Assembly: GCA_049424145.1 (NCBI GenBank)
Contig: JBMSSC010000015.1
Coordinates: 1 to 31,556, forward strand
Reading direction: 5' to 3'
Source: Bdellovibrionia bacterium
GTDB taxonomy: Bacteria; Bdellovibrionota; UBA1018
DNA: 31,556 bases
In this document: positions 10,287-18,449 of the stretch, piece after piece
Layout: the number at the start of each line of letters is the position of its first letter
Position numbering within the stretch: position 1 is the stretch's first letter
Position numbers and translations under genes: made by a program
The notes under the pieces: model-generated
What the model was told of the DNA's origin: nothing
Database searches by the model: none
The model's input: only the letters and a program-made list of their open reading frames with translations

Positions 10287-10934
10287 TTAGGATTTGAGTA
10301 CTCGTTTTAAGAGAATGATTTTTCTTTGCTTGTTTTCGAGAGCAATTTCATAGTCTCGCTCATTTTCAACGCGAAGCTCTCCTGAAAACCGGGACTCCTG
10401 AAACTCCAACCACTCCTGGTGCCATCCGGGACCTTTTAAAAGCACCAAAGTGTTCCACGTGGAACATTTTCGGATCCAACCGTAGATTTTCTCGACTTTT
10501 CCCACAGCCCGAGCCACCACACTGCCTAAAGCATGTGATTTTAAATAGGTTTCAGCCCGATCGGAGACCACCTGAACCTGATCTGAAAGACCTAGAGTAT
10601 CCACACAACGACTTAAAAACTGAGCTTTTCGACCTTCAGATTCGGCTAAAACCCAGTTTTGGCCCCCAATCAGTGCAGAAAGTAGCCCTGGAACGCCTCC
10701 TCCTGAGCCTAGATCTAAAGCAGGAAACTCTAAACCCTCTTCTTTGAGCAATTCCAGGCAGTCTTTCACATGATACTGACAGAATTCCTGGGGTGAACTG
10801 AGCCGAGTGAGGTTTTGGACCTGATTTTCCTTCTGAAGCAGATCATAAAACAGAATCACCTGCTCTAACCGCTCCGATGAGAGGGAAAAACCCTCCTTCT
10901 CCAGCATTTTTAAGAGATCCTTACGAAGCTCCAT
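10287..10934 (-). CDS. rsmG: 16S rRNA m7G527 methyltransferase (GidB)
   Basis: NLTRL, H-x-x-D-x-L, LDLGSGGGVPG SAM motif, ARAV and LKGP; mnmG-rsmG-parA-parB synteny. Confidence 0.95.
   Translation of the reverse strand: MELRKDLLKMLEKEGFSLSSERLEQVILFYDLLQKENQVQNLTRLSSPQEFCQYHVKDCLELLKEEGLEFPALDLGSGGGVPGLLSALIGGQNWVLAESEGRKAQFLSRCVDTLGLSDQVQVVSDRAETYLKSHALGSVVARAVGKVEKIYGWIRKCSTWNTLVLLKGPGWHQEWLEFQESRFSGELRVENERDYEIALENKQRKIILLKRVLKS
10451..10466. promoter_or_regulatory. parS: parS centromere site 2 (inside rsmG)
   Basis: Second identical TGTTCCACGTGGAACA, read as CSTWN in RsmG. Confidence 0.93.
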
Positions 10935-12819
10935 GGGTCACCTTTTCTTGCTGAGAGGCCTCAAGCTTCAGATGAATCATCAAGGCCGCAACAGCAGCGG
11001 GGGTCACTCCCCCCATGCGAGAGGCTTGACCAATGGTCTCAGGCCGGGTTTTCTTCAGCCTGCCTCGAATCTCACTGGAAAGCCCGGCCACTTGATCAAA
11101 ATCTAAGGATTCTGGAATTTTAAGGCTCTCGTTCTTCCTCATCCCCTCTAAAAGCTCAAGGTCCCGCCGAATATAACCCTCGTATTTCACCTGAATCTCC
11201 ACTTGCTCGCGAACCGTAGGTGAAACGTCCCCTGCTAAAAACCCCAGCTCCAAAAGAGCGTCCCAAGTGATCTCAGGCCGTCGTAAAAACACCTCAGCTG
11301 AGACCCGATCCTTCAACGGATTCATCCCCCTTGCCTGCACCCAAGCATTCGTCTCAATCGTGGGATAAACATGAAATTGATTCAGCTCTTTTTTCCAGTG
11401 CTCCACTTGCTCCATCTTTTGGGTGAACCGAGCAAACTGGGCATCACTTAAGAGACCTAACTTCCAGCCCATCTCACTGAGCCGGGCATCCGCATTATCT
11501 TCCCGAAGCAAGAGACGGTATTCCGCCCGAGAAGTGAACATGCGATAGGGCTCATCAGCGCCTTTAAGCACCAAGTCATCGGCCAAAACCCCCATGTACC
11601 CATCCATTCGAGAGAGAACCATGGGTGCTTTCTCTTGAACCTGCAACGCTGCATTGACTCCGGCAATCAAACCCTGCGCCCCAGCCTCCTCATAGCCTGA
11701 GGTTCCATTGATCTGACCCGCAAAAAACAGCCCTCGATAGTCCTTCGATTCAAACGTGGCACGCAATCGTCTTGCGTCAATGCAATCATACTCCACGGCA
11801 TAGCCAAATTTCGTGAACTGGGCTTGCTCTAGGCCCTCAATGGACCTCACAAAACGCTCTTGGACGTCCCTGGGAAGACTGGTGGAGATCCCATTCACAT
11901 AGATCTCATCCGTTGTGAGCCCCTCAGGCTCTAAAAAGATCTGATGTCGCTCGCGCTCGGCAAATCGCTTCACCTTATCTTCGATCGAAGGACAGTAACG
12001 AGGCCCCACCCCTTGAATCACTCCCGTAAACATGGGAGAGCGCGAGAAATTCTCCGCAATCACCTCATGAGTCTTGGGATTCGTATAGGTAATATGGCAG
12101 GAAACCTGCGGCAAAAGAGGAAATCGCTCCGGCTCATAGTAAAACGAAAACGGCACCGGGTTCTCATCTCCCGGTTGTTCCTCGAGCCGACTCCAATCAA
12201 TGCTGTCGCGGTGCAGCCTGGGGGGAGTCCCCGTTTTCAATCGCCCCAACTCAAAGCCCAGCTGTTTGAGACTCAAACTCAACCCGACTGAGGCTCGATC
12301 CCCTAACCTCCCCCCCTCGGTCTGCTCAAACCCCACATGCATGACACCCTGTAAAAACGTGCCTGAGGTGATCACAACCGTACGAGTCCGAATGACACTG
12401 TCATCGGCAAGCCTCACGCCGCAGACTTGGGTGCCCTGCGTTAAGATTTCCATCGCTTCAAGCGGAAGGATCGTAAGACCCGGCAAAACCTCCAAAAACT
12501 CTTGCATGCGCTGAGCATATAGCGCCTTATCACACTGGGCTCGAGAGGACCGCACGGCTGGCCCTTTACTGGAATTGAGTCTTCGGTACTGAATCGCAGT
12601 CTTGTCGGTATTCATCCCCATCACACCGCCTAAGGCATCGATTTCCTTAATGAGCTGACCCTTGGCAAGCCCACCCATGGCCGGATTACACGACATCAAA
12701 GCAATTCTTTTTTTATCAAGAGATAATAGAGCCGTTTTACATCCCATGCGCGCCGCAGCGTGAGCCGCTTCACACCCTGCATGCCCGCCTCCAATCACCA
12801 CTACATCAAAATCCAGCAT
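10921..12819 (-). CDS. mnmG: tRNA U34 carboxymethylaminomethyl modification enzyme (GidA)
   Basis: GGGHAGCEAA, MSCNPAMGG, RLKTGTPPR, GPRYCPSIEDK, AGQINGTSGYEEA and YRMFTSRAEYRL motifs. Confidence 0.99.
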   Translation of the reverse strand: MLDFDVVVIGGGHAGCEAAHAAARMGCKTALLSLDKKRIALMSCNPAMGGLAKGQLIKEIDALGGVMGMNTDKTAIQYRRLNSSKGPAVRSSRAQCDKALYAQRMQEFLEVLPGLTILPLEAMEILTQGTQVCGVRLADDSVIRTRTVVITSGTFLQGVMHVGFEQTEGGRLGDRASVGLSLSLKQLGFELGRLKTGTPPRLHRDSIDWSRLEEQPGDENPVPFSFYYEPERFPLLPQVSCHITYTNPKTHEVIAENFSRSPMFTGVIQGVGPRYCPSIEDKVKRFAERERHQIFLEPEGLTTDEIYVNGISTSLPRDVQERFVRSIEGLEQAQFTKFGYAVEYDCIDARRLRATFESKDYRGLFFAGQINGTSGYEEAGAQGLIAGVNAALQVQEKAPMVLSRMDGYMGVLADDLVLKGADEPYRMFTSRAEYRLLLREDNADARLSEMGWKLGLLSDAQFARFTQKMEQVEHWKKELNQFHVYPTIETNAWVQARGMNPLKDRVSAEVFLRRPEITWDALLELGFLAGDVSPTVREQVEIQVKYEGYIRRDLELLEGMRKNESLKIPESLDFDQVAGLSSEIRGRLKKTRPETIGQASRMGGVTPAAVAALMIHLKLEASQQEKVTHGAS

Positions 12820-13195: not shown

Positions 13196-14995
13196 ATGTC
13201 CTATTCTTATCCCCTCGCACCTGAAAAAGTTCCGTTTGCTCCATTTCTGATGAACCTGTCTAGAAAATTGGCCTCCGCCTTCATCCTGCTTTTTTTCGCT
13301 CTCATGGCTCTCTCACCGGTTCAATGGTCTTTCCCAACCCAAGCGCATGCGGGCACAGCAGCCAATTTCCCACCGGGAACTCAGGAAATTGTCTTGGAAT
13401 GCTATGCAAAACGACGTGGAAATGATCCAGACTCAACCTGGGGAGCTCCGCACCATCGACCTGAGTCTCACTGCGCCAAGATCTGGGAAGCCCCTGAAAC
13501 AGGAAGTCCCTGGGCCGTCCTAATTCAGGACGTCCGCATCACTAGTCGAAACCAAGAAGATGTCACCCAATACTCCTTTCACATCACTCCTTCTACCCAA
13601 AATGTGAAAAAAATTGAACTCTCAGCACACGCGAATTACTCCAACGGTTTCAGGGGACTCTTCATTAACCCTCCTTCTTCCTGGATTGGCGTTCGGGCAT
13701 TCATTCGCCTAGCGCCTCATGCCGACACCCTTCCCTCTTTCTATCAAGAGATTGCAACTGCCATGAACCATGAACACAAGCAACGCATCCTAAAGGGCCA
13801 ACGAGACGAGCTCTCACAGCGACTCCATGACATTGACGAAGCCGAGCCAGAGCTAAGAGGTCAAATCATCACCAAAACCAACCAGATCATTGACTTATTT
13901 AACCAGAATCAACTCGATCTGACCCAAGCAGTCGCAGCGCTTTCACGGGAGCAACAGAGATATGAACGAGGCATGAAGCGTGCACGCTTTCATCTGCTTG
14001 ATCTCCAGCACCACTGGAACGACCCGATCAACAAAAGCCTACATGAAGACTTAAGACGCCTCCAAATCACCCCGGTAGATCCCCAAGCTCAGCTCCTTTT
14101 AGACGATCGCCTGGAGTACCTCTCTGAACTCCAAAGTGCGATGTCCCAGGACATTCAGTCTGCAATGCTCGAGCTTGCTCCTGCTGGGCTTCAACGCACC
14201 AGCCCTCCCCTGATTGCCCTAAATCCCTTGAATTCAAGTGACTTTGCAACTGTGTGCTTTTTTCAGAGCAACCCGTTCGTTGGGTGCTTAGAAATCTACC
14301 GATTCATGGGCGATCAGTACTGCAAAGAAAGTGCTCCCCCAACTCACACACACCTGCAAATGGTCGTGGATTACGATCAATGGCGTAATTTATTTCATGA
14401 AAAAAAATACACCGGAGAGTGCAAACCTTTTCGGCTCCTGGAAGACCCAAATGAGCCTGAAGAACTGGAGCAAACCCCTCCTCCACTTATGCCCAGCCCC
14501 CTTCTCACGCAAACCCTCCCCGAACTCCATCAATCCGCCGCAACTGAGGCTTTAGAAGCCTCTGCAGTGGCTCCTGAACAAGCTGTAAGTCTTCGGGTTC
14601 CAATCTACAAAACCGAAGGCGGCAGGAGAGTCCTCAACCACTACGAGTATCGGAGACAAATCTCAAACCCCATTCTAAGGACCTTACCCAAGAAGGCCGC
14701 TCAACCCAACCATAGGAACCCTAAAACTCAGCAGCAAACCCGAATTCTCCCCTTCATCCCACTGACTTCAGGCTCACTGCAGGCTCCCAATGGGCTTGAA
14801 TCCTCTGGAACTGAGCCCTCCTTCTTTCCGAGAAACTCCGAGCCCACCCAAGACGGATTCGAATTTAACGCCTCATTTTTACCAGAACCCCCAATCCTTC
14901 CCTTACTGCCGCTAGGCATCTCCCCGATGCACTCAAACCCCGGTGAAGTCGATGATATTTCTAGACTCCTGTCTCAGGGATCTTTTTTTAAATAA
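13196..14995 (+). CDS. Hypothetical exported protein (signal peptide, small Cys-containing N-domain, coiled coil, Pro-rich tail)
   Basis: 599-aa ORF. Likely start ATG 13250 gives MNLSRKLASAFILLFFALMALS...AHA|G, a signal-peptidase-I-type leader. No family recognised. Confidence 0.75.
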   Translation: MSYSYPLAPEKVPFAPFLMNLSRKLASAFILLFFALMALSPVQWSFPTQAHAGTAANFPPGTQEIVLECYAKRRGNDPDSTWGAPHHRPESHCAKIWEAPETGSPWAVLIQDVRITSRNQEDVTQYSFHITPSTQNVKKIELSAHANYSNGFRGLFINPPSSWIGVRAFIRLAPHADTLPSFYQEIATAMNHEHKQRILKGQRDELSQRLHDIDEAEPELRGQIITKTNQIIDLFNQNQLDLTQAVAALSREQQRYERGMKRARFHLLDLQHHWNDPINKSLHEDLRRLQITPVDPQAQLLLDDRLEYLSELQSAMSQDIQSAMLELAPAGLQRTSPPLIALNPLNSSDFATVCFFQSNPFVGCLEIYRFMGDQYCKESAPPTHTHLQMVVDYDQWRNLFHEKKYTGECKPFRLLEDPNEPEELEQTPPPLMPSPLLTQTLPELHQSAATEALEASAVAPEQAVSLRVPIYKTEGGRRVLNHYEYRRQISNPILRTLPKKAAQPNHRNPKTQQQTRILPFIPLTSGSLQAPNGLESSGTEPSFFPRNSEPTQDGFEFNASFLPEPPILPLLPLGISPMHSNPGEVDDISRLLSQGSFFK

Positions 14996-15016: not shown

Positions 15017-16567
15017 ATGACTACAATTATAAAAAATCGGATCCAAAAAAATCCCCTCAGAATAAACGGTCTGACGAGCCTCCTTCTCATGGTGATGAAC
15101 CTTCAGCTGGCCTATGCCGGTAAAGACTGTCCCACCTCCTCCCACTATAATTATGATTTATTGGGAAAGTCTCACTGCCCGAACTGTGAAAAACCAGCTC
15201 CCCCACCGGCAGCCGACGAGTCTGATGACACACCCTCCTGGCGCAAACACTACGAGTCCACCTATGAGCGCTGGAAACGAGAGGAGGAAGGTCGATATTA
15301 CGTCATTCCAGAGCCAGACCCCAACGACGAAATGGCACAATTCGGCAGAGCGTGGTTTTTCGGCGCCAAAACAGCAGATCCAAATCCCACGAAAGATCAG
15401 ACAGTACCCGAGCGCATTACTTTCCCTGATATCAAGCAAGTCGCACAACGAATTGAACAGGAAACTCTCGAACATCAAAAGAAAACTCAACAAGCCTCTG
15501 AAGAGCTCGAGAAAGAAAAAAAAGCACATGACGCCTGCATAAAAGACCTTGCCGAATCCTTTCAGGACCAAAAAAAGTTCTTTGAAAAAAGCAAAGCCAT
15601 CAAAGAGAACATTCGGGAGCACCTCACCCACATTGACCCGAAAGAGGCCAATGCCCTCAACCGCGCCATCACGGGATGGGATTACCGCAAGGCCAGCCCT
15701 GAAATGATTGCAGCAGCCTGCTCGGCTGAGAATCTTGCACAAGCCAGCGCCTACTACGAGGAAAAAGCATCAGAAACCCTTCAAGCCGCTCATGAAATCG
15801 CCAAAGAGGCTTTGGGATTAAGCCTACATGAACTCACCTCTGCAGCAAAAGCCCTGGTTCGTCCCTCAGAGATGGAAGCAATTGCTCACTCCATTGAGTA
15901 TGCCGACATTGCCCGAGAGCTCGCATTAGCCTTAGTCGACGTGGGCACCTCGGTCACTCCGGGCGTCTCCACTGCCCGCGATGCCTACGAGCTCATCACG
16001 GGAAAAAGCCTCATCACAGGAGATGAGCTTTCTGATCTTGATCGAACTCTAGCTGGATTAAATCTCGCCACTTTAGGCATTGGACACGTCGCTTCAGGAA
16101 CTCTGAAAGTGGCTGAAAAAATCGGTCATCTCGCTGCAGCCAATCAACGAATTGGAGCCATCGAGCACGGACTTGAGTCCTCCATCCGCTCTGCCGAACA
16201 CATCCTGGAATCGTCTATCGTGCCTGGGGGAGCAAAAAATCGGGCAGCTCATGAACACTTTTTAAAAGAGATGAGAGAAGCAATGGAACGTCCTCACGTA
16301 GAAGACCCAAAGTTGTTCAATTTCATGAAAAATCAGTATCGCCGAAATGCAGAGATAGGAAGTGGAAGCACTGCTGCTGCCATTCGACATGAGCTGACCT
16401 CAGGAGACTTAGTGAAAGGAAAAACGCATATTGAAAAGGGTCAAAATGATGTAAGAGGATTGAGACACTGGTTGAAAGAGAATCCAACTGCTCGACCAGG
16501 CGATCGAGCTGCGGCCGAAAATGTCTTGAAAGACCTCGTCGATTCCCTTGGAGATTTAGCGCCATGA
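15017..16567 (+). CDS. Polymorphic toxin: Sec-type signal peptide, coiled coil, pre-toxin TG (PT-TG) domain and C-terminal helical toxin domain
   Basis: N-terminus ...LLLMVMNLQLAYA|G. PT-TG motif TPGVSTARDAYELITGKSLITGDELSDLDR at ~15920-16078. C-terminal YRRNAEIGSGSTAAAIRHELTSG...THIEKG segment resembles tips of Rhs/CdiA-type toxins. ATGA-coupled small gene downstream. Confidence 0.85.
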   Translation: MTTIIKNRIQKNPLRINGLTSLLLMVMNLQLAYAGKDCPTSSHYNYDLLGKSHCPNCEKPAPPPAADESDDTPSWRKHYESTYERWKREEEGRYYVIPEPDPNDEMAQFGRAWFFGAKTADPNPTKDQTVPERITFPDIKQVAQRIEQETLEHQKKTQQASEELEKEKKAHDACIKDLAESFQDQKKFFEKSKAIKENIREHLTHIDPKEANALNRAITGWDYRKASPEMIAAACSAENLAQASAYYEEKASETLQAAHEIAKEALGLSLHELTSAAKALVRPSEMEAIAHSIEYADIARELALALVDVGTSVTPGVSTARDAYELITGKSLITGDELSDLDRTLAGLNLATLGIGHVASGTLKVAEKIGHLAAANQRIGAIEHGLESSIRSAEHILESSIVPGGAKNRAAHEHFLKEMREAMERPHVEDPKLFNFMKNQYRRNAEIGSGSTAAAIRHELTSGDLVKGKTHIEKGQNDVRGLRHWLKENPTARPGDRAAAENVLKDLVDSLGDLAP

Positions 16568-16962
16568 TTCAAGAAAAAGACTGTATGGAGGCCCTCCTCC
16601 AGGTTGCGCCAGAATTCAAAGCCAGGCTTGAAGCGCACCTTCTGGAGTGGGGTAGTGAATCCAATTTACACTTCCAAATGGCTGAGTTTTCCTACTTCAT
16701 CAAGGAAAAATTCAGACAGGGAGATTATTCCAATGCTCCGCAGGTCTTCGCTCGGATTGAATTTTTACTCTCAGGCCACAATGCATCCGAAAAGGTCAAA
16801 AATGCAGTCTGCACCTGCTTTTTAGAAAACTTAATCAACGCTTTTTCTGAAGAATTGAATCAACTCAAAATCTGGATTCCTCTTCTCGGCCCGGAATCTC
16901 GGGAGTATTGCAAAGCATGGGATCAATTTACGGGAGTCAAGACGCCTGGCTTGTGGGATTGA
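16564..16962 (+). CDS. Cognate immunity protein (helical, DUF7674-like), copy 1
   Basis: 132 aa, overlapping the toxin stop (ATGA); F-x-x-IE-x-LL...V-x-NA...FLENL...LGPES pattern. The family label is from recall. Confidence 0.8.
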   Translation: MIQEKDCMEALLQVAPEFKARLEAHLLEWGSESNLHFQMAEFSYFIKEKFRQGDYSNAPQVFARIEFLLSGHNASEKVKNAVCTCFLENLINAFSEELNQLKIWIPLLGPESREYCKAWDQFTGVKTPGLWD

Positions 16963-16979
16963 CGAGGTTGTTCAATTTC

Positions 16980-17222
16980 ATGGAAAGTCAGTATCGCCGA
17001 AATGCAGAGATAGGAAGTGGAAGCACTGCTGCTGCCATTCGACATGAGCTGACCTCAGGAGACTTAGTGAAAGGAAAAACGCATATTGAAAAGGGTCAAA
17101 ATGATGTAAGAGGATTGAGACACTGGTTGAAAGAGAATCCAACTGCTCGACCAGGCGATCGAGCTGCGGCCGAAAATGTCTTGAAAGACCTCGTCGATTC
17201 CCTTGGAGATTTAGCGCCATGA
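16980..17222 (+). pseudogene. Orphan toxin C-terminal cassette (duplicate of the last 80 aa of the toxin)
   Basis: MESQYRRNAEIGSGS...DLAP is identical to the toxin tip except K>E and N>S. It lacks the signal peptide and PT-TG. GAGG lies 12 nt upstream of ATG 16980. Confidence 0.75.
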
Positions 17223-17617
17223 TTCAAGAAAAAGACTGTATGGAGGCCCTCCTCCAGGTTGCGCCAGAATTCAAAGCCAGGCTTGAAGCGCACCTTCTGG
17301 AGTGGGGTAGTGAATCCAATTTACACTTCCAAATGGCTGAGTTTTCCTACTTCATCAAGGAAAAATTCAGACAGGGAGATTATTCCAATGCTCCGCAGGT
17401 CTTCGCTCGGATTGAATTTTTACTCTCAGGCCACAATGCATCCGAAAAGGTCAAAAATGCAGTCTGCACCTGCTTTTTAGAAAACTTAATCAACGCTTTT
17501 TCTGAAGAATTGAATCAACTCAAAATCTGGATTCCTCTTCTCGGCCCGGAATCTCGGGAGTATTGCAAAGCATGGGATCAATTTACGGGAGTCAAGACGC
17601 CTGGCTTGTGGGATTGA
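17219..17617 (+). CDS. Immunity protein, copy 2 (identical to copy 1)
   Basis: Identical 132-aa sequence, ATGA-coupled to the orphan tip. Confidence 0.8.
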   Translation: MIQEKDCMEALLQVAPEFKARLEAHLLEWGSESNLHFQMAEFSYFIKEKFRQGDYSNAPQVFARIEFLLSGHNASEKVKNAVCTCFLENLINAFSEELNQLKIWIPLLGPESREYCKAWDQFTGVKTPGLWD

Positions 17618-17720: not shown

Positions 17721-18053
17721 GTGACCGAACCGATTTTTACGAGACCTGGTAATCACAAAAATGTGCGAAGGATTTATCCGATTAAAATCATAGTTAACCT
17801 ACAAAAGATTGATCGAGTAGTCATTGATCCACATTATGAGAAAAAACACAAAGATCACATGAGTGATGAACTCATCCTTGCTTTAGTCGAGACCCTGGAT
17901 GGTCAAAGATTCATCCCAACTGGCTAGGTACCTTCGGGATTTAGTTACTATCGATTGGTTTGGTGTCAGCATCCAAAAGAAAACTATGTCGGTGTTATTA
18001 CAGCGTTTAGGAGACGTTATGGCAAGAAACATGAGATTCCCAGGAGCAGATGA
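17721..18053 (+). pseudogene. Probable type II TA toxin gene interrupted by an in-frame TAG (17925-17927)
   Basis: RRIYPIKIIVN...VVIDPHYEKKH...DELILALVETLDGQRFIPTG*VPSGFSYYRLVWCQHPKENYVGVITAFRRRYGKK...*. The frame stays open for 41 codons after the TAG and ends in a RelE/BrnT-like 'GVITAFRR' strand overlapping the HTH gene. The start may be GTG 17763. Confidence 0.6.
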
Positions 18054-18333
18054 GCTTCAAGAAATGAGACGTAAGGCCGCTCAATCTAAGGGTAGCGTTG
18101 TTATTCCGAAAGATGCAGACCCATTAGATCGCACCAAGTACGAACTTTGTCGTGCCTTTGTCGACTACCTCCTAGACCATCAAATCACCCAAAAACAATT
18201 AGCAGCTCGTATGAAAGTCAGTGAGGCACGAGTCTCTGAAATTGTTCACTATAAAATTCATCGTCTCACATTGGATCGACTTGTAAAATATATGGGACGA
18301 CTTAATCCTAAGTTTAGTCTCAAGGCTGCGTAG
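18019..18333 (+). CDS. XRE-family HTH regulator, probable antitoxin (HigA-like)
   Basis: ITQKQLAARMKVSEARVSEIVHYKIHRLTLDRLVKYM HTH. AGGAGA RBS at 18009-18014 before ATG 18019; the ORF-track start at 17899 is probably too early. Confidence 0.85.
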   Translation: MARNMRFPGADELQEMRRKAAQSKGSVVIPKDADPLDRTKYELCRAFVDYLLDHQITQKQLAARMKVSEARVSEIVHYKIHRLTLDRLVKYMGRLNPKFSLKAA

Positions 18334-18372
18334 TGTGGCTCTTCACGGTTGATGGTGGGTAGCAGATGAAAA

Positions 18373-18449
<77 letters not shown>

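Follow-up and report, generated by a model that had tools for sequence, protein, structure and literature searches.

How would a toxin that carries a Sec leader, and no recognized delivery domain, reach the cytoplasm of another cell, and whose cytoplasm would that be? The question is raised by a locus on contig JBMSSC010000015.1 of a Bdellovibrionia bacterium (assembly GCA_049424145.1), whose 31,556 nucleotides (nt), read on the forward strand, are referred to as the window. The locus comprises a gene for a protein of 516 amino acids (aa), P0001, and an overlapping gene for a protein of 132 aa (Table 1). We consider it probable that P0001 is a Sec-exported polymorphic toxin with a predicted cognate immunity protein, that it belongs to a class found across the Bdellovibrionota, and that the cells it acts in are bacterial competitors, with rival Bdellovibrionota the most probable among them.

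A predicted Sec leader, PT-TG, and an exchangeable tip in P0001

A Pfam search placed PT-TG in P0001 at 49.9 bits against a cut-off of 23.5 (PF14449, residues 306-359, E 3.1e-13), as the sequence-only reading of the locus had claimed. That reading had also seen no delivery domain, and none was found: LXG, WXG, RHS, MuF, PAAR, and haemagglutinin families were absent from P0001 (Pfam, E ≤ 0.1), and a scan with NCBIfam gave nothing useful. The proposed 34-residue leader of the Sec/signal peptidase I (SPase-I) type was supported as well. It has K/R at positions 6, 8, 11, and 15, AYA at 32-34, and an AYA-G junction, and both this leader and the diverged one of a paralogue (P0004, with AFA at 32-34) passed the strict version of our signal-peptide test. 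The leader tests used throughout are our own strict and permissive heuristics rather than SignalP. Judged from its sequence, P0001 is likely exported by Sec, and we hold this with good confidence.

A Cys/His stretch behind the leader had been pointed out too. The residues are present, but they are not conserved: C38 is a Tyr in the paralogue, and CxxC at 54-57 is limited to P0001 and the paralogue among 11 aligned proteins, so the stretch was ruled out as a metal-binding delivery motif. C174 is found in 10 of the 11 and C235 in 9. Residues 35-136 are common only to P0001, the paralogue and, weakly from about residue 80, the protein P0066. The coiled coil proposed for the following segment is a putative one, read from the sequence pattern and from a helix at 137-203 in a single-sequence model of low confidence (whole-protein mean pLDDT 47.6).

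Residues 35-399 were then compared with 1.84 billion representatives, yielding 360 matches, of which the best 150 were examined. Within these 150, the stalk from about residue 155 is shared by P0001 and seven homologues, and conservation runs through PT-TG and breaks near residue 400. Six tip types were counted by eye on the eight tip-bearing stalk homologues, and two named stalk relatives are proteins from metagenome-assembled genomes (MAGs) of Bdellovibrionia. The expectation that homologues would have a common N terminus and different tips was thus half right: the tips differ, but what the homologues have in common is the stalk with PT-TG (about 155-400), and the N-regions fall into 41 clusters. 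Among the stalk homologues, P0066 has PT-HINT where PT-TG would be expected, and P0039 lacks a tip and stops after a degenerate PT-TG. When metagenomes were scanned with P0028, a single match of 23 residues came up.

The paralogue lies on contig C73 (L001:10615-12113), between genes that by eye resemble a SAM methyltransferase and NFACT. It is 69% identical to P0001 over 440 residues, is cut short by a stop at codon 424, and no longer has the tip or the immunity gene. DNA similarity between the two copies (76%) begins at window position 14837, within the 3' end of an upstream 599-aa open reading frame (ORF), P0003; the tail of this ORF would therefore double as the upstream region of the toxin gene.

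An overlapping DUF7674 gene as predicted immunity partner

The 132-aa ORF overlaps the end of the toxin ORF at ATGA, in keeping with the coupling described earlier. Its product belongs to DUF7674 (PF24722, E 2.8e-17), lacks a leader, and has a net charge of -6. DUF7674 stands directly behind the same tip in 23 of the 30 loci that have a downstream gene, and four more downstream genes, all from Bdellovibrio, align with the family below its cut-off. A literature search on DUF7674/PF24722 found no paper. From the sequence, the locus is very probably of the toxin/immunity type, with DUF7674 as the partner.

Behind the pair lies a tandem duplicate containing an orphan tip fragment (ATG 16980-17222, 80 aa, missing 36 residues from the start of the tip) and a second immunity gene of identical sequence (17219-17617); it is the only orphan cassette at the locus and carries the same tip. 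The joint of the duplicate (16966 to 16312) was found in contigs of three of four runs; these belong to three studies, and one of the studies may be where the window comes from. An assembly artefact was ruled out because the joint recurs in this way.

PT-TG proteins form a phylum-wide set in the Bdellovibrionota

PT-TG matches were found in 61 of the 401 genomes of the host phylum (host included) versus 1 of 101 Gammaproteobacteria, and the lone match in the latter was 5'-open with no visible leader. The genomes scanned are incomplete samples, that of the host being 95% complete. The 79 non-self matches, 75 of them with a closed 5' end, make up the class set. Class proteins publicly named as Bdellovibrio and Bacteriovorax, together with the Bdellovibrionia stalk relatives, bear out the Bdellovibrionota-like lineage that had been suspected. 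LXG, WXG, RHS, MuF, PAAR, VgrG, and haemagglutinin/FHA domains occur in 0/79 members (E ≤ 1e-5). Five members have an M48 peptidase at the N terminus and one has MORN repeats, and tips of other members match TNT, RES, Ntox46, and Ntox35. The strict leader heuristic was passed by 53/75 members against 162/694 host ORFs of like size, and the permissive one by 65/75 against 327/692; 11 members look like lipoproteins, with a lipobox-like motif. A downstream ORF is present in 75/79 loci, begins within -35 to +20 nt in 71 of these, and has a leader in only one of the 75.

Clustering of 82 proteins gave 18 tip clusters and 41 N-region clusters. The tip cluster of P0001 occurs on three N-region clusters, and several tips were seen on 7 of the 15 N-region clusters with more than one member. 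Tip clusters covaried with downstream-gene clusters (score 195 versus a maximum of 114 in 2000 shuffles; 44 pairs, in which kin are not independent). These data indicated that immunity families track tip families.

The idea of a distinct class of Sec-exported polymorphic toxin has to be divided. The phylum-wide set supports it, but Sec-exported polymorphic toxins for which no second export step is known are as such an already described category (PMC3482391; MafB, PMC4287609). For the PT-TG class of this phylum no description was found in the literature searched, subscription papers and bioRxiv supplements lying outside that search. No paper on polymorphic toxins in Bdellovibrionota was found either, and the main text of PMC11656739 does not contain the words "toxin," "polymorphic," "immunity," or "Rhs."

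Three further features of the set were noted. Tip cluster 0, the commonest of the phylum (39 proteins, e.g., L063, L090, and L102), may hold NAD-cleaving or related enzymes, since one member matches TNT (E 3.9e-7). An M48 peptidase precedes PT-TG in L067, L076, L095, L096, and L111, which span four tip clusters and include several lipobox-like leaders; these are possibly a self-processing subclass. In five loci (L091:4536-5093, L094, L102, L105, and L113) a secreted beta-rich protein is encoded directly after the immunity gene, and the two that were scanned had no Pfam match.

The tip: a conserved, predicted helical domain shared by unrelated carriers

At first the tip was seen in a pair of RHS proteins and in P0005, a 720-aa protein with a signal peptide. 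Scanning species genomes with a tip profile gave 32 loci from 70 candidates, two of which repeat known proteins (L059 and L046). Residues S451, T452, R457, E459, H471, K474, and D496 are 98-100% conserved in 120 further homologues. Carrier ORFs were scanned for 27 of the 32 loci, five short, broken, or redundant ones being omitted: six were Rhs, one FHA/CdiA-like, five PT-TG, and two eCIS-core proteins (extracellular contractile injection system), and 13 had no Pfam match. The same tip/DUF7674 pair was frequent in environmental Chlamydiae (L120-L146), on Rhs or unannotated carriers and sometimes beside transposases. In L144, L145, and L147 a tip-like segment sits in eCIS-core-type proteins with no DUF7674 behind it, twice with 200-350 more residues following.

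The helical tip of about 115 aa that had been predicted was recovered in an alignment-based model of five helices (all-helical, mean pLDDT 80, pTM 0.71). In a Foldseek search the top row was chain B of 5j43, the toxin domain CdiA-CT EC536, and VIA aligned 79 residues of the two (Z 6.8, root mean square deviation 3.1). A feature match in the atlas pointed to Ntox28 (0.86) and serves as a lead only. When the tip profile was laid on the EC536 sequence, H471 fell in register with the catalytic H178. On the strength of these models, the tip may be a divergent helical RNase related to CdiA-CT EC536/Ntox28 and not filed as Ntox28; we rate the chances as about even.

Several results speak against this kinship. 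The Foldseek match is not significant (E 1.4, TM 0.48/0.53), and VIA places EC536 at rank 10, tied with or below unrelated helical bundles (best Z 7.7). The profile score against EC536 is only 6.2 bits, a value reached in 8 of 1000 shuffles and, with a deeper profile, in 104 of 1000. In an alignment judged by eye, T452 and K474 of the tip take the places of the Mg-binding D155 and E181 of EC536, and DUF7674 is not matched by the immunity protein of EC536. PF15605 matched 0/31 tips at E ≤ 1, in a comparison whose control failed, as the same profile also missed the E. coli 536 chromosome. CdiA-CT EC536 requires D155, H178, and a CysK partner (PMC11724271, PMC9086364), and the Ntox28 motif is given as D, K[DE], [DN]HxxE, E (PMC3482391, Table). 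The tip lacks this motif and has T, [RH]xE, and HxxK at the matching places, so that the His is kept and the first Asp and the Glu of HxxE are not.

Genome searches with PF15605 gave 0/250 in Bacilli-class genomes, one weak off-target match in 300 Gammaproteobacteria, and none in E. coli 536; a search of the same genomes with the tip alignment (A2) gave no candidate. Sequence searches of the tip and the immunity protein against known structures produced nothing significant (best 0.013, a REV1 helical bundle). YxiD was rejected as a relative, being a BECR/Ntox50 toxin (PMC12700104).

Candidate secreted partners upstream and the proposed outer-membrane step

P0003 has a signal-peptide-like leader and ends 21 nt before the toxin start; it has no Pfam or NCBIfam match and no usable match in the atlas. 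It was tested as a split-off N terminus of the 720-aa relative P0005, and this was ruled out. Of 75 class loci, 38 have a complete upstream ORF on the same strand no more than 100 nt away, and 26 of these 38 ORFs have a leader, compared with 285/1438 in the background; 41 of 42 neighbours scanned had no Pfam family. P0003 is regarded as a candidate partner because of this phylum-wide pattern of leader-bearing upstream ORFs. A recurrent secreted partner of 164-202 aa, with a Gly-rich hydrophobic stretch and a charged helical tail, was seen in seven loci (L083, L090, L094, L102, L105, L106, and L109), and in L113:2605-4182 a start like that of this partner seems, by eye, to be fused to the toxin itself.

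Hcp was present in 4/401 genomes and in 0/61 PT-TG carriers, all incomplete genomes. The host genome, at 95% completeness, contains no WXG100 and no CdiB-like match, and its sole ShlB match is the TamA-like gene, under the cut-off. The host has secretins at four loci. TamAB had been listed among the possible routes, but the neighbouring TamAB looks incidental: as a dedicated exporter it found no support, and the 1.5 kb upstream of mnmG held tamA, tamB, or the toxin in 0/19 family relatives. By eye, TamA/B were also outside the 25 most recurrent neighbour clusters.

We propose the following course of events. The leader would direct the toxin through Sec into the periplasm, where a C174-C235 disulfide would form, a step of which we are fairly confident. 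A second step over the outer membrane would lead to display or release, with secretins, vesicles, and contact transfer as candidate routes. By analogy to mafA-mafB-mafI and sitB-sitA-sitI, co-encoded secreted partners could be involved in this outer-membrane step, a suggestion that we make with somewhat less than even confidence. The variable N-region might then pick the target surface, and the stalk and PT-TG might bring the tip in. The pattern of conservation suggests that tips are swapped by recombination near residue 400. Once in the cytoplasm the tip would, on roughly even odds, work as an RNase of the helical-bundle type akin to CdiA-CT EC536/Ntox28, His471 standing in for His178. DUF7674, linked to the tip and here present in two gene copies, would shield the producer and its clonal relatives by binding the tip and inhibiting it.

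A Bdellovibrio bacteriovorus homologue and the likely target

The class includes a B. bacteriovorus protein, L044 (CAE80015.1/WP_011164617.1), which appears in published tables under the name Bd2179. Its tip and immunity clusters are the same as those of the window, its partner gene is Bd2180, and secreted-looking neighbours stand on both sides. Its public name is "putative Rhs family protein"; no RHS match supports this name. A literature search on Bd2177/78/79/80 found no paper. According to the supplement of PMC2797640, Bd2179 is unchanged on prey entry (1.03 and 1.01; p 0.49), and Bd2177-Bd2183 are not induced. In host-independent growth, Bd2177, 78, 79, 81, and 83 drop together to 0.2-0.5 and Bd2180 does not (PMC2797640). 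Bd2180 was called expressed in one phase (PMC3627812; the meaning of the columns is taken from the sheet title).

The sequence-only reading had left open whether prey or kin would be attacked. The part concerning kin or rivals is favored here, but a role in prey entry is not, given that Bd2179 is not induced on entry. Rival bacteria, probably Bdellovibrionota, are preferred over prey because occurrence is patchy, the matched immunity protein is leaderless, and induction at invasion is lacking. By analogy with this one homologue, competing bacteria, most probably rival Bdellovibrionota, are the likely target.

Weighing the explanations

The strongest competitor of a weapon against rivals is an effector exported at or inside the prey, whose tip would stop prey translation while immunity protected the producer only. 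The phylum is one of predators and has PT-TG in 61/401 genomes versus 1/101 in Gammaproteobacteria, the host has four secretin loci, and reads of Bd2179 (3 versus 21) are higher in the presumed growth-phase column (PMC3627812). Yet Bd2177-Bd2183 are not induced on prey entry; 340 of the 401 genomes have no PT-TG match, which argues that PT-TG proteins are not core predation machinery; and strain-level tip swaps with matched immunity suit an arms race among producers. A prey-directed effector is, in our estimate, unlikely.

The setting of the genes could also fit a selfish addiction cassette, the tip and immunity protein acting in-cell like a type II toxin-antitoxin with export vestigial. The insertion beside mnmG is lineage specific (0/19 family relatives), the paralogue is decayed, the duplicate has its own ATG, and a broken toxin-antitoxin-like pair lies just downstream. 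For rhs of Salmonella an addiction-type role has reportedly been seen (PMC7043789), which we count in its favor. Vestigial export sits poorly with leaders kept across 41 unrelated N-region clusters, with the conserved Cys pair, and with co-regulated secreted neighbours, and we take an addiction cassette to be very unlikely. A target among eukaryotes, either grazing protists or a host, is suggested by the at least 11 of 32 tip loci that come from MAGs of the Chlamydiae group. The Chlamydiae carriers are Rhs-type, however, and a cytoplasmic immunity family is tightly linked in nearly all loci, Chlamydiae included, which is an antibacterial requirement; an effector against eukaryotes is accordingly given very little credence. 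We give least to the reading of P0001 as a secreted protein of the adhesin or surface type, variable at its end and accompanied by a gene for a chaperone. Although no Pfam toxin family matches the tip and its fold match is weak, distant phyla have Rhs and CdiA-like carriers with the same tip and the same downstream family, the polar residues are invariant, and the sister tips are known toxin families.

For the Sec-exported toxin against rivals, there are several points on the other side of the balance. No homologue of P0003 was found in 60 relatives or anywhere else searched, and its role as partner follows from position only. The hydrophobic core of the P0001 leader is modest (mean 2.0 over the best 11 residues), the heuristic leader background is 23-47%, and 22/75 class members fail the strict test. 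Extra tip-like matches, i.e., orphan cassettes, were present within about 3.5 kb in only 6/75 loci, unlike the classic CDI (contact-dependent inhibition), Rhs, and maf arrays. Bd2179 is weakly transcribed, at 0.6 and 15 reads per kilobase per million, and was not called expressed (PMC3627812, with column meanings taken from the sheet title); the searched members of Bd2176-Bd2181 are absent from the proteome table in file 3 of PMC12546842. Chlamydiae MAGs often carry the tip, so that a eukaryotic target is conceivable, and the host itself is a presumed predator. A bolder version, in which multi-protein Sec-exported complexes take an undescribed route through two outer membranes and kill rival predators on or in the same prey, with the tip as a new metal-independent helical tRNase branch and DUF7674 as immunity, is doubtful.

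Comparison with known systems

By the features tested, the locus falls outside LXG/WXG, Rhs, CDI, type VI secretion system (T6SS), MuF, MafB, and SitA systems; its layout may be likened to mafABI or sitBAI. The mafA-mafB-mafI loci of Neisseria likewise encode a signal-peptide-dependent polymorphic toxin with no repeats and no known second export step, an upstream secreted gene, and a downstream immunity gene, and are lineage restricted; secretion of MafB needs the signal peptide, not PilQ or MafA (PMC4287609). In contrast to MafB, the class toxins and the 42 neighbours scanned have no DUF1020/MafB-N (Pfam), and the class combines heterogeneous N-regions with a constant stalk plus PT-TG, many unrelated upstream orphans, and few orphan cassettes. 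Myxococcus sitB-sitA-sitI resembles the locus in its secreted accessory gene, which overlaps the toxin gene, its immunity gene, its predatory lineage, and its use against kin, which is predicted for the locus. SitA is, however, a lipoprotein moved by TraAB outer-membrane exchange, whereas the P0001 leader is of the SPase-I type (AYA-G) with no lipobox; PT-TG is unmentioned in the available part of that paper (PMC5562445).

The type II secretion/Sec polymorphic toxins of Zhang 2012 share the signal peptide, the lineage-specific N-region, and the variable tip. The examples given there are MafB-N, Microscilla-N, and APD1/2, and neither PT-TG nor Bdellovibrio is mentioned in the first 300,000 of its 357,715 characters (PMC3482391). 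PT-TG has been described as a Gram-positive pre-toxin domain, the counterpart of PT-VENN, and the LXG/WXG toxins of type VII secretion systems (T7SS) resemble P0001 in having PT-TG just before a variable tip and an immunity gene behind (PMC3113570). Here the host is diderm, a Sec leader is predicted, and WXG/LXG is lacking in P0001 and the 79 members, a comparison that did not include the W10XG profile. The Pandoomain survey deals with the same PT-TG domain, and among the PT-TG-only proteins of its table are 10 from Bdellovibrio, 2 from Oligoflexus, and 1 from Bacteriovorax; monoderm members are explained there by W10XG/T7SS and diderm ones left open. Bdellovibrio goes unmentioned in the main text, and the available text does not analyze the carriers for signal peptides (PMC13483458).

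The remaining systems differ more plainly. Rhs toxins differ in their YD/RHS repeats and core, absent from P0001 and the 79 class members, and CDI in its TPS/FHA domains, absent from the class, the only TpsB-type match of the host being the TamA-like gene under the cut-off. T6SS effectors differ in PAAR/VgrG and in having no signal peptide, and Hcp was lacking in the 61 incomplete PT-TG genomes. MuF has no match here, and the neighbours are mnmG and tamA, not a prophage head module. With CdiA-CT EC536/Ntox28 (5J43) the tip shares a small helical bundle and a His in register (H471/H178) where the third helix of the bundle begins; it differs in its 16% identity, the loss of D155 and E181, the absence of a C-terminal GYGI, the other immunity family, and an extra N-terminal helix, and it is below every family threshold.

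Layout and genomic setting of the locus

Table 1. Features of the toxin locus, with positions in the window
Feature	Positions	Strand	Basis
Upstream orphan ORF P0003, 599 aa, likely start M19 at 13250; candidate secreted partner	13196..14995	+	
Predicted toxin gene (P0001), 516 aa	15017..16567	+	ORF call, Pfam, homologue alignment
Predicted Sec/SPase-I leader, residues 1-34, AYA at end	15017..15118	+	Sequence, hydropathy, strict heuristic
Variable N-region, residues 35-136, CxxC 54-57 inside	15119..15424	+	Clustering, alignment
Helical stalk, residues 137-305, Cys174 and Cys235	15425..15931	+	Alignment; low-confidence model
PT-TG (PF14449), residues 306-359	15932..16093	+	Pfam, E 3.1e-13
Linker helix up to swap point at about residue 400	16094..16216	+	Alignment; conservation lost after ILES at about 400
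Predicted toxin tip, residues 401-516, unnamed family	16217..16567	+	Conservation, model, fold searches
Predicted cognate immunity gene, 132 aa, DUF7674 (PF24722)	16564..16962	+	Pfam, E 2.8e-17
Tandem duplicate of 16312-16962, 651 bp, 2 mismatches	16967..17617	+	Sequence comparison

The block is flanked by mnmG and a tamA-like gene, with parAB and the atp operon nearby, and it was found within 1.5 kb upstream of mnmG in 0/19 family relatives. The gene upstream of mnmG differs across the family (window 10921-12819, L168-L186), being by eye often ribonucleotide-reductase-like and sometimes dnaA-like, so this origin-proximal site seems to be a variable spot. GC content is 45.9% in the tip, 44.9% in the immunity gene, 50.4% in the part encoding residues 1-400, and 49.1% in the genome. 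Promoter and terminator scans of the locus were no better than chance.

Further downstream, at window 17763-18333 (+), a broken small ORF with an internal TAG near 17925 is followed by an HTH_37/HigA-like gene, and by sequence the two resemble a type II toxin-antitoxin pair in decay. A short intergenic repeat at 18337-18446, with 77-100% matches on contigs C3, C6, C10, C28, C63, and C188, is possibly a REP-like or RNA element. Two RHS-repeat ORFs are found elsewhere in the host, on C20 and C43 (1694 and 575 aa), and the C20 copy ends at the contig edge in its core.

Implications

A 2026 survey of PT-TG left the diderm members with no delivery route (PMC13483458), and the locus opens a phylum-wide set whose shared layout would be a secreted partner, a toxin with a Sec leader, and an immunity protein. 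DUF7674 gains a likely function, and the set yields a predicted toxin family without a name as well as numerous orphan tips. In the genetically tractable B. bacteriovorus (Bd2177-Bd2183) there is a member whose tip and immunity family are the same, which makes several questions testable: whether predators fight predators, how a Sec-exported toxin may reach the Gram-negative cytoplasm with neither the type V secretion system nor T6SS, and what PT-TG does. The answers would be relevant to the mixing of Bdellovibrio strains for biocontrol.

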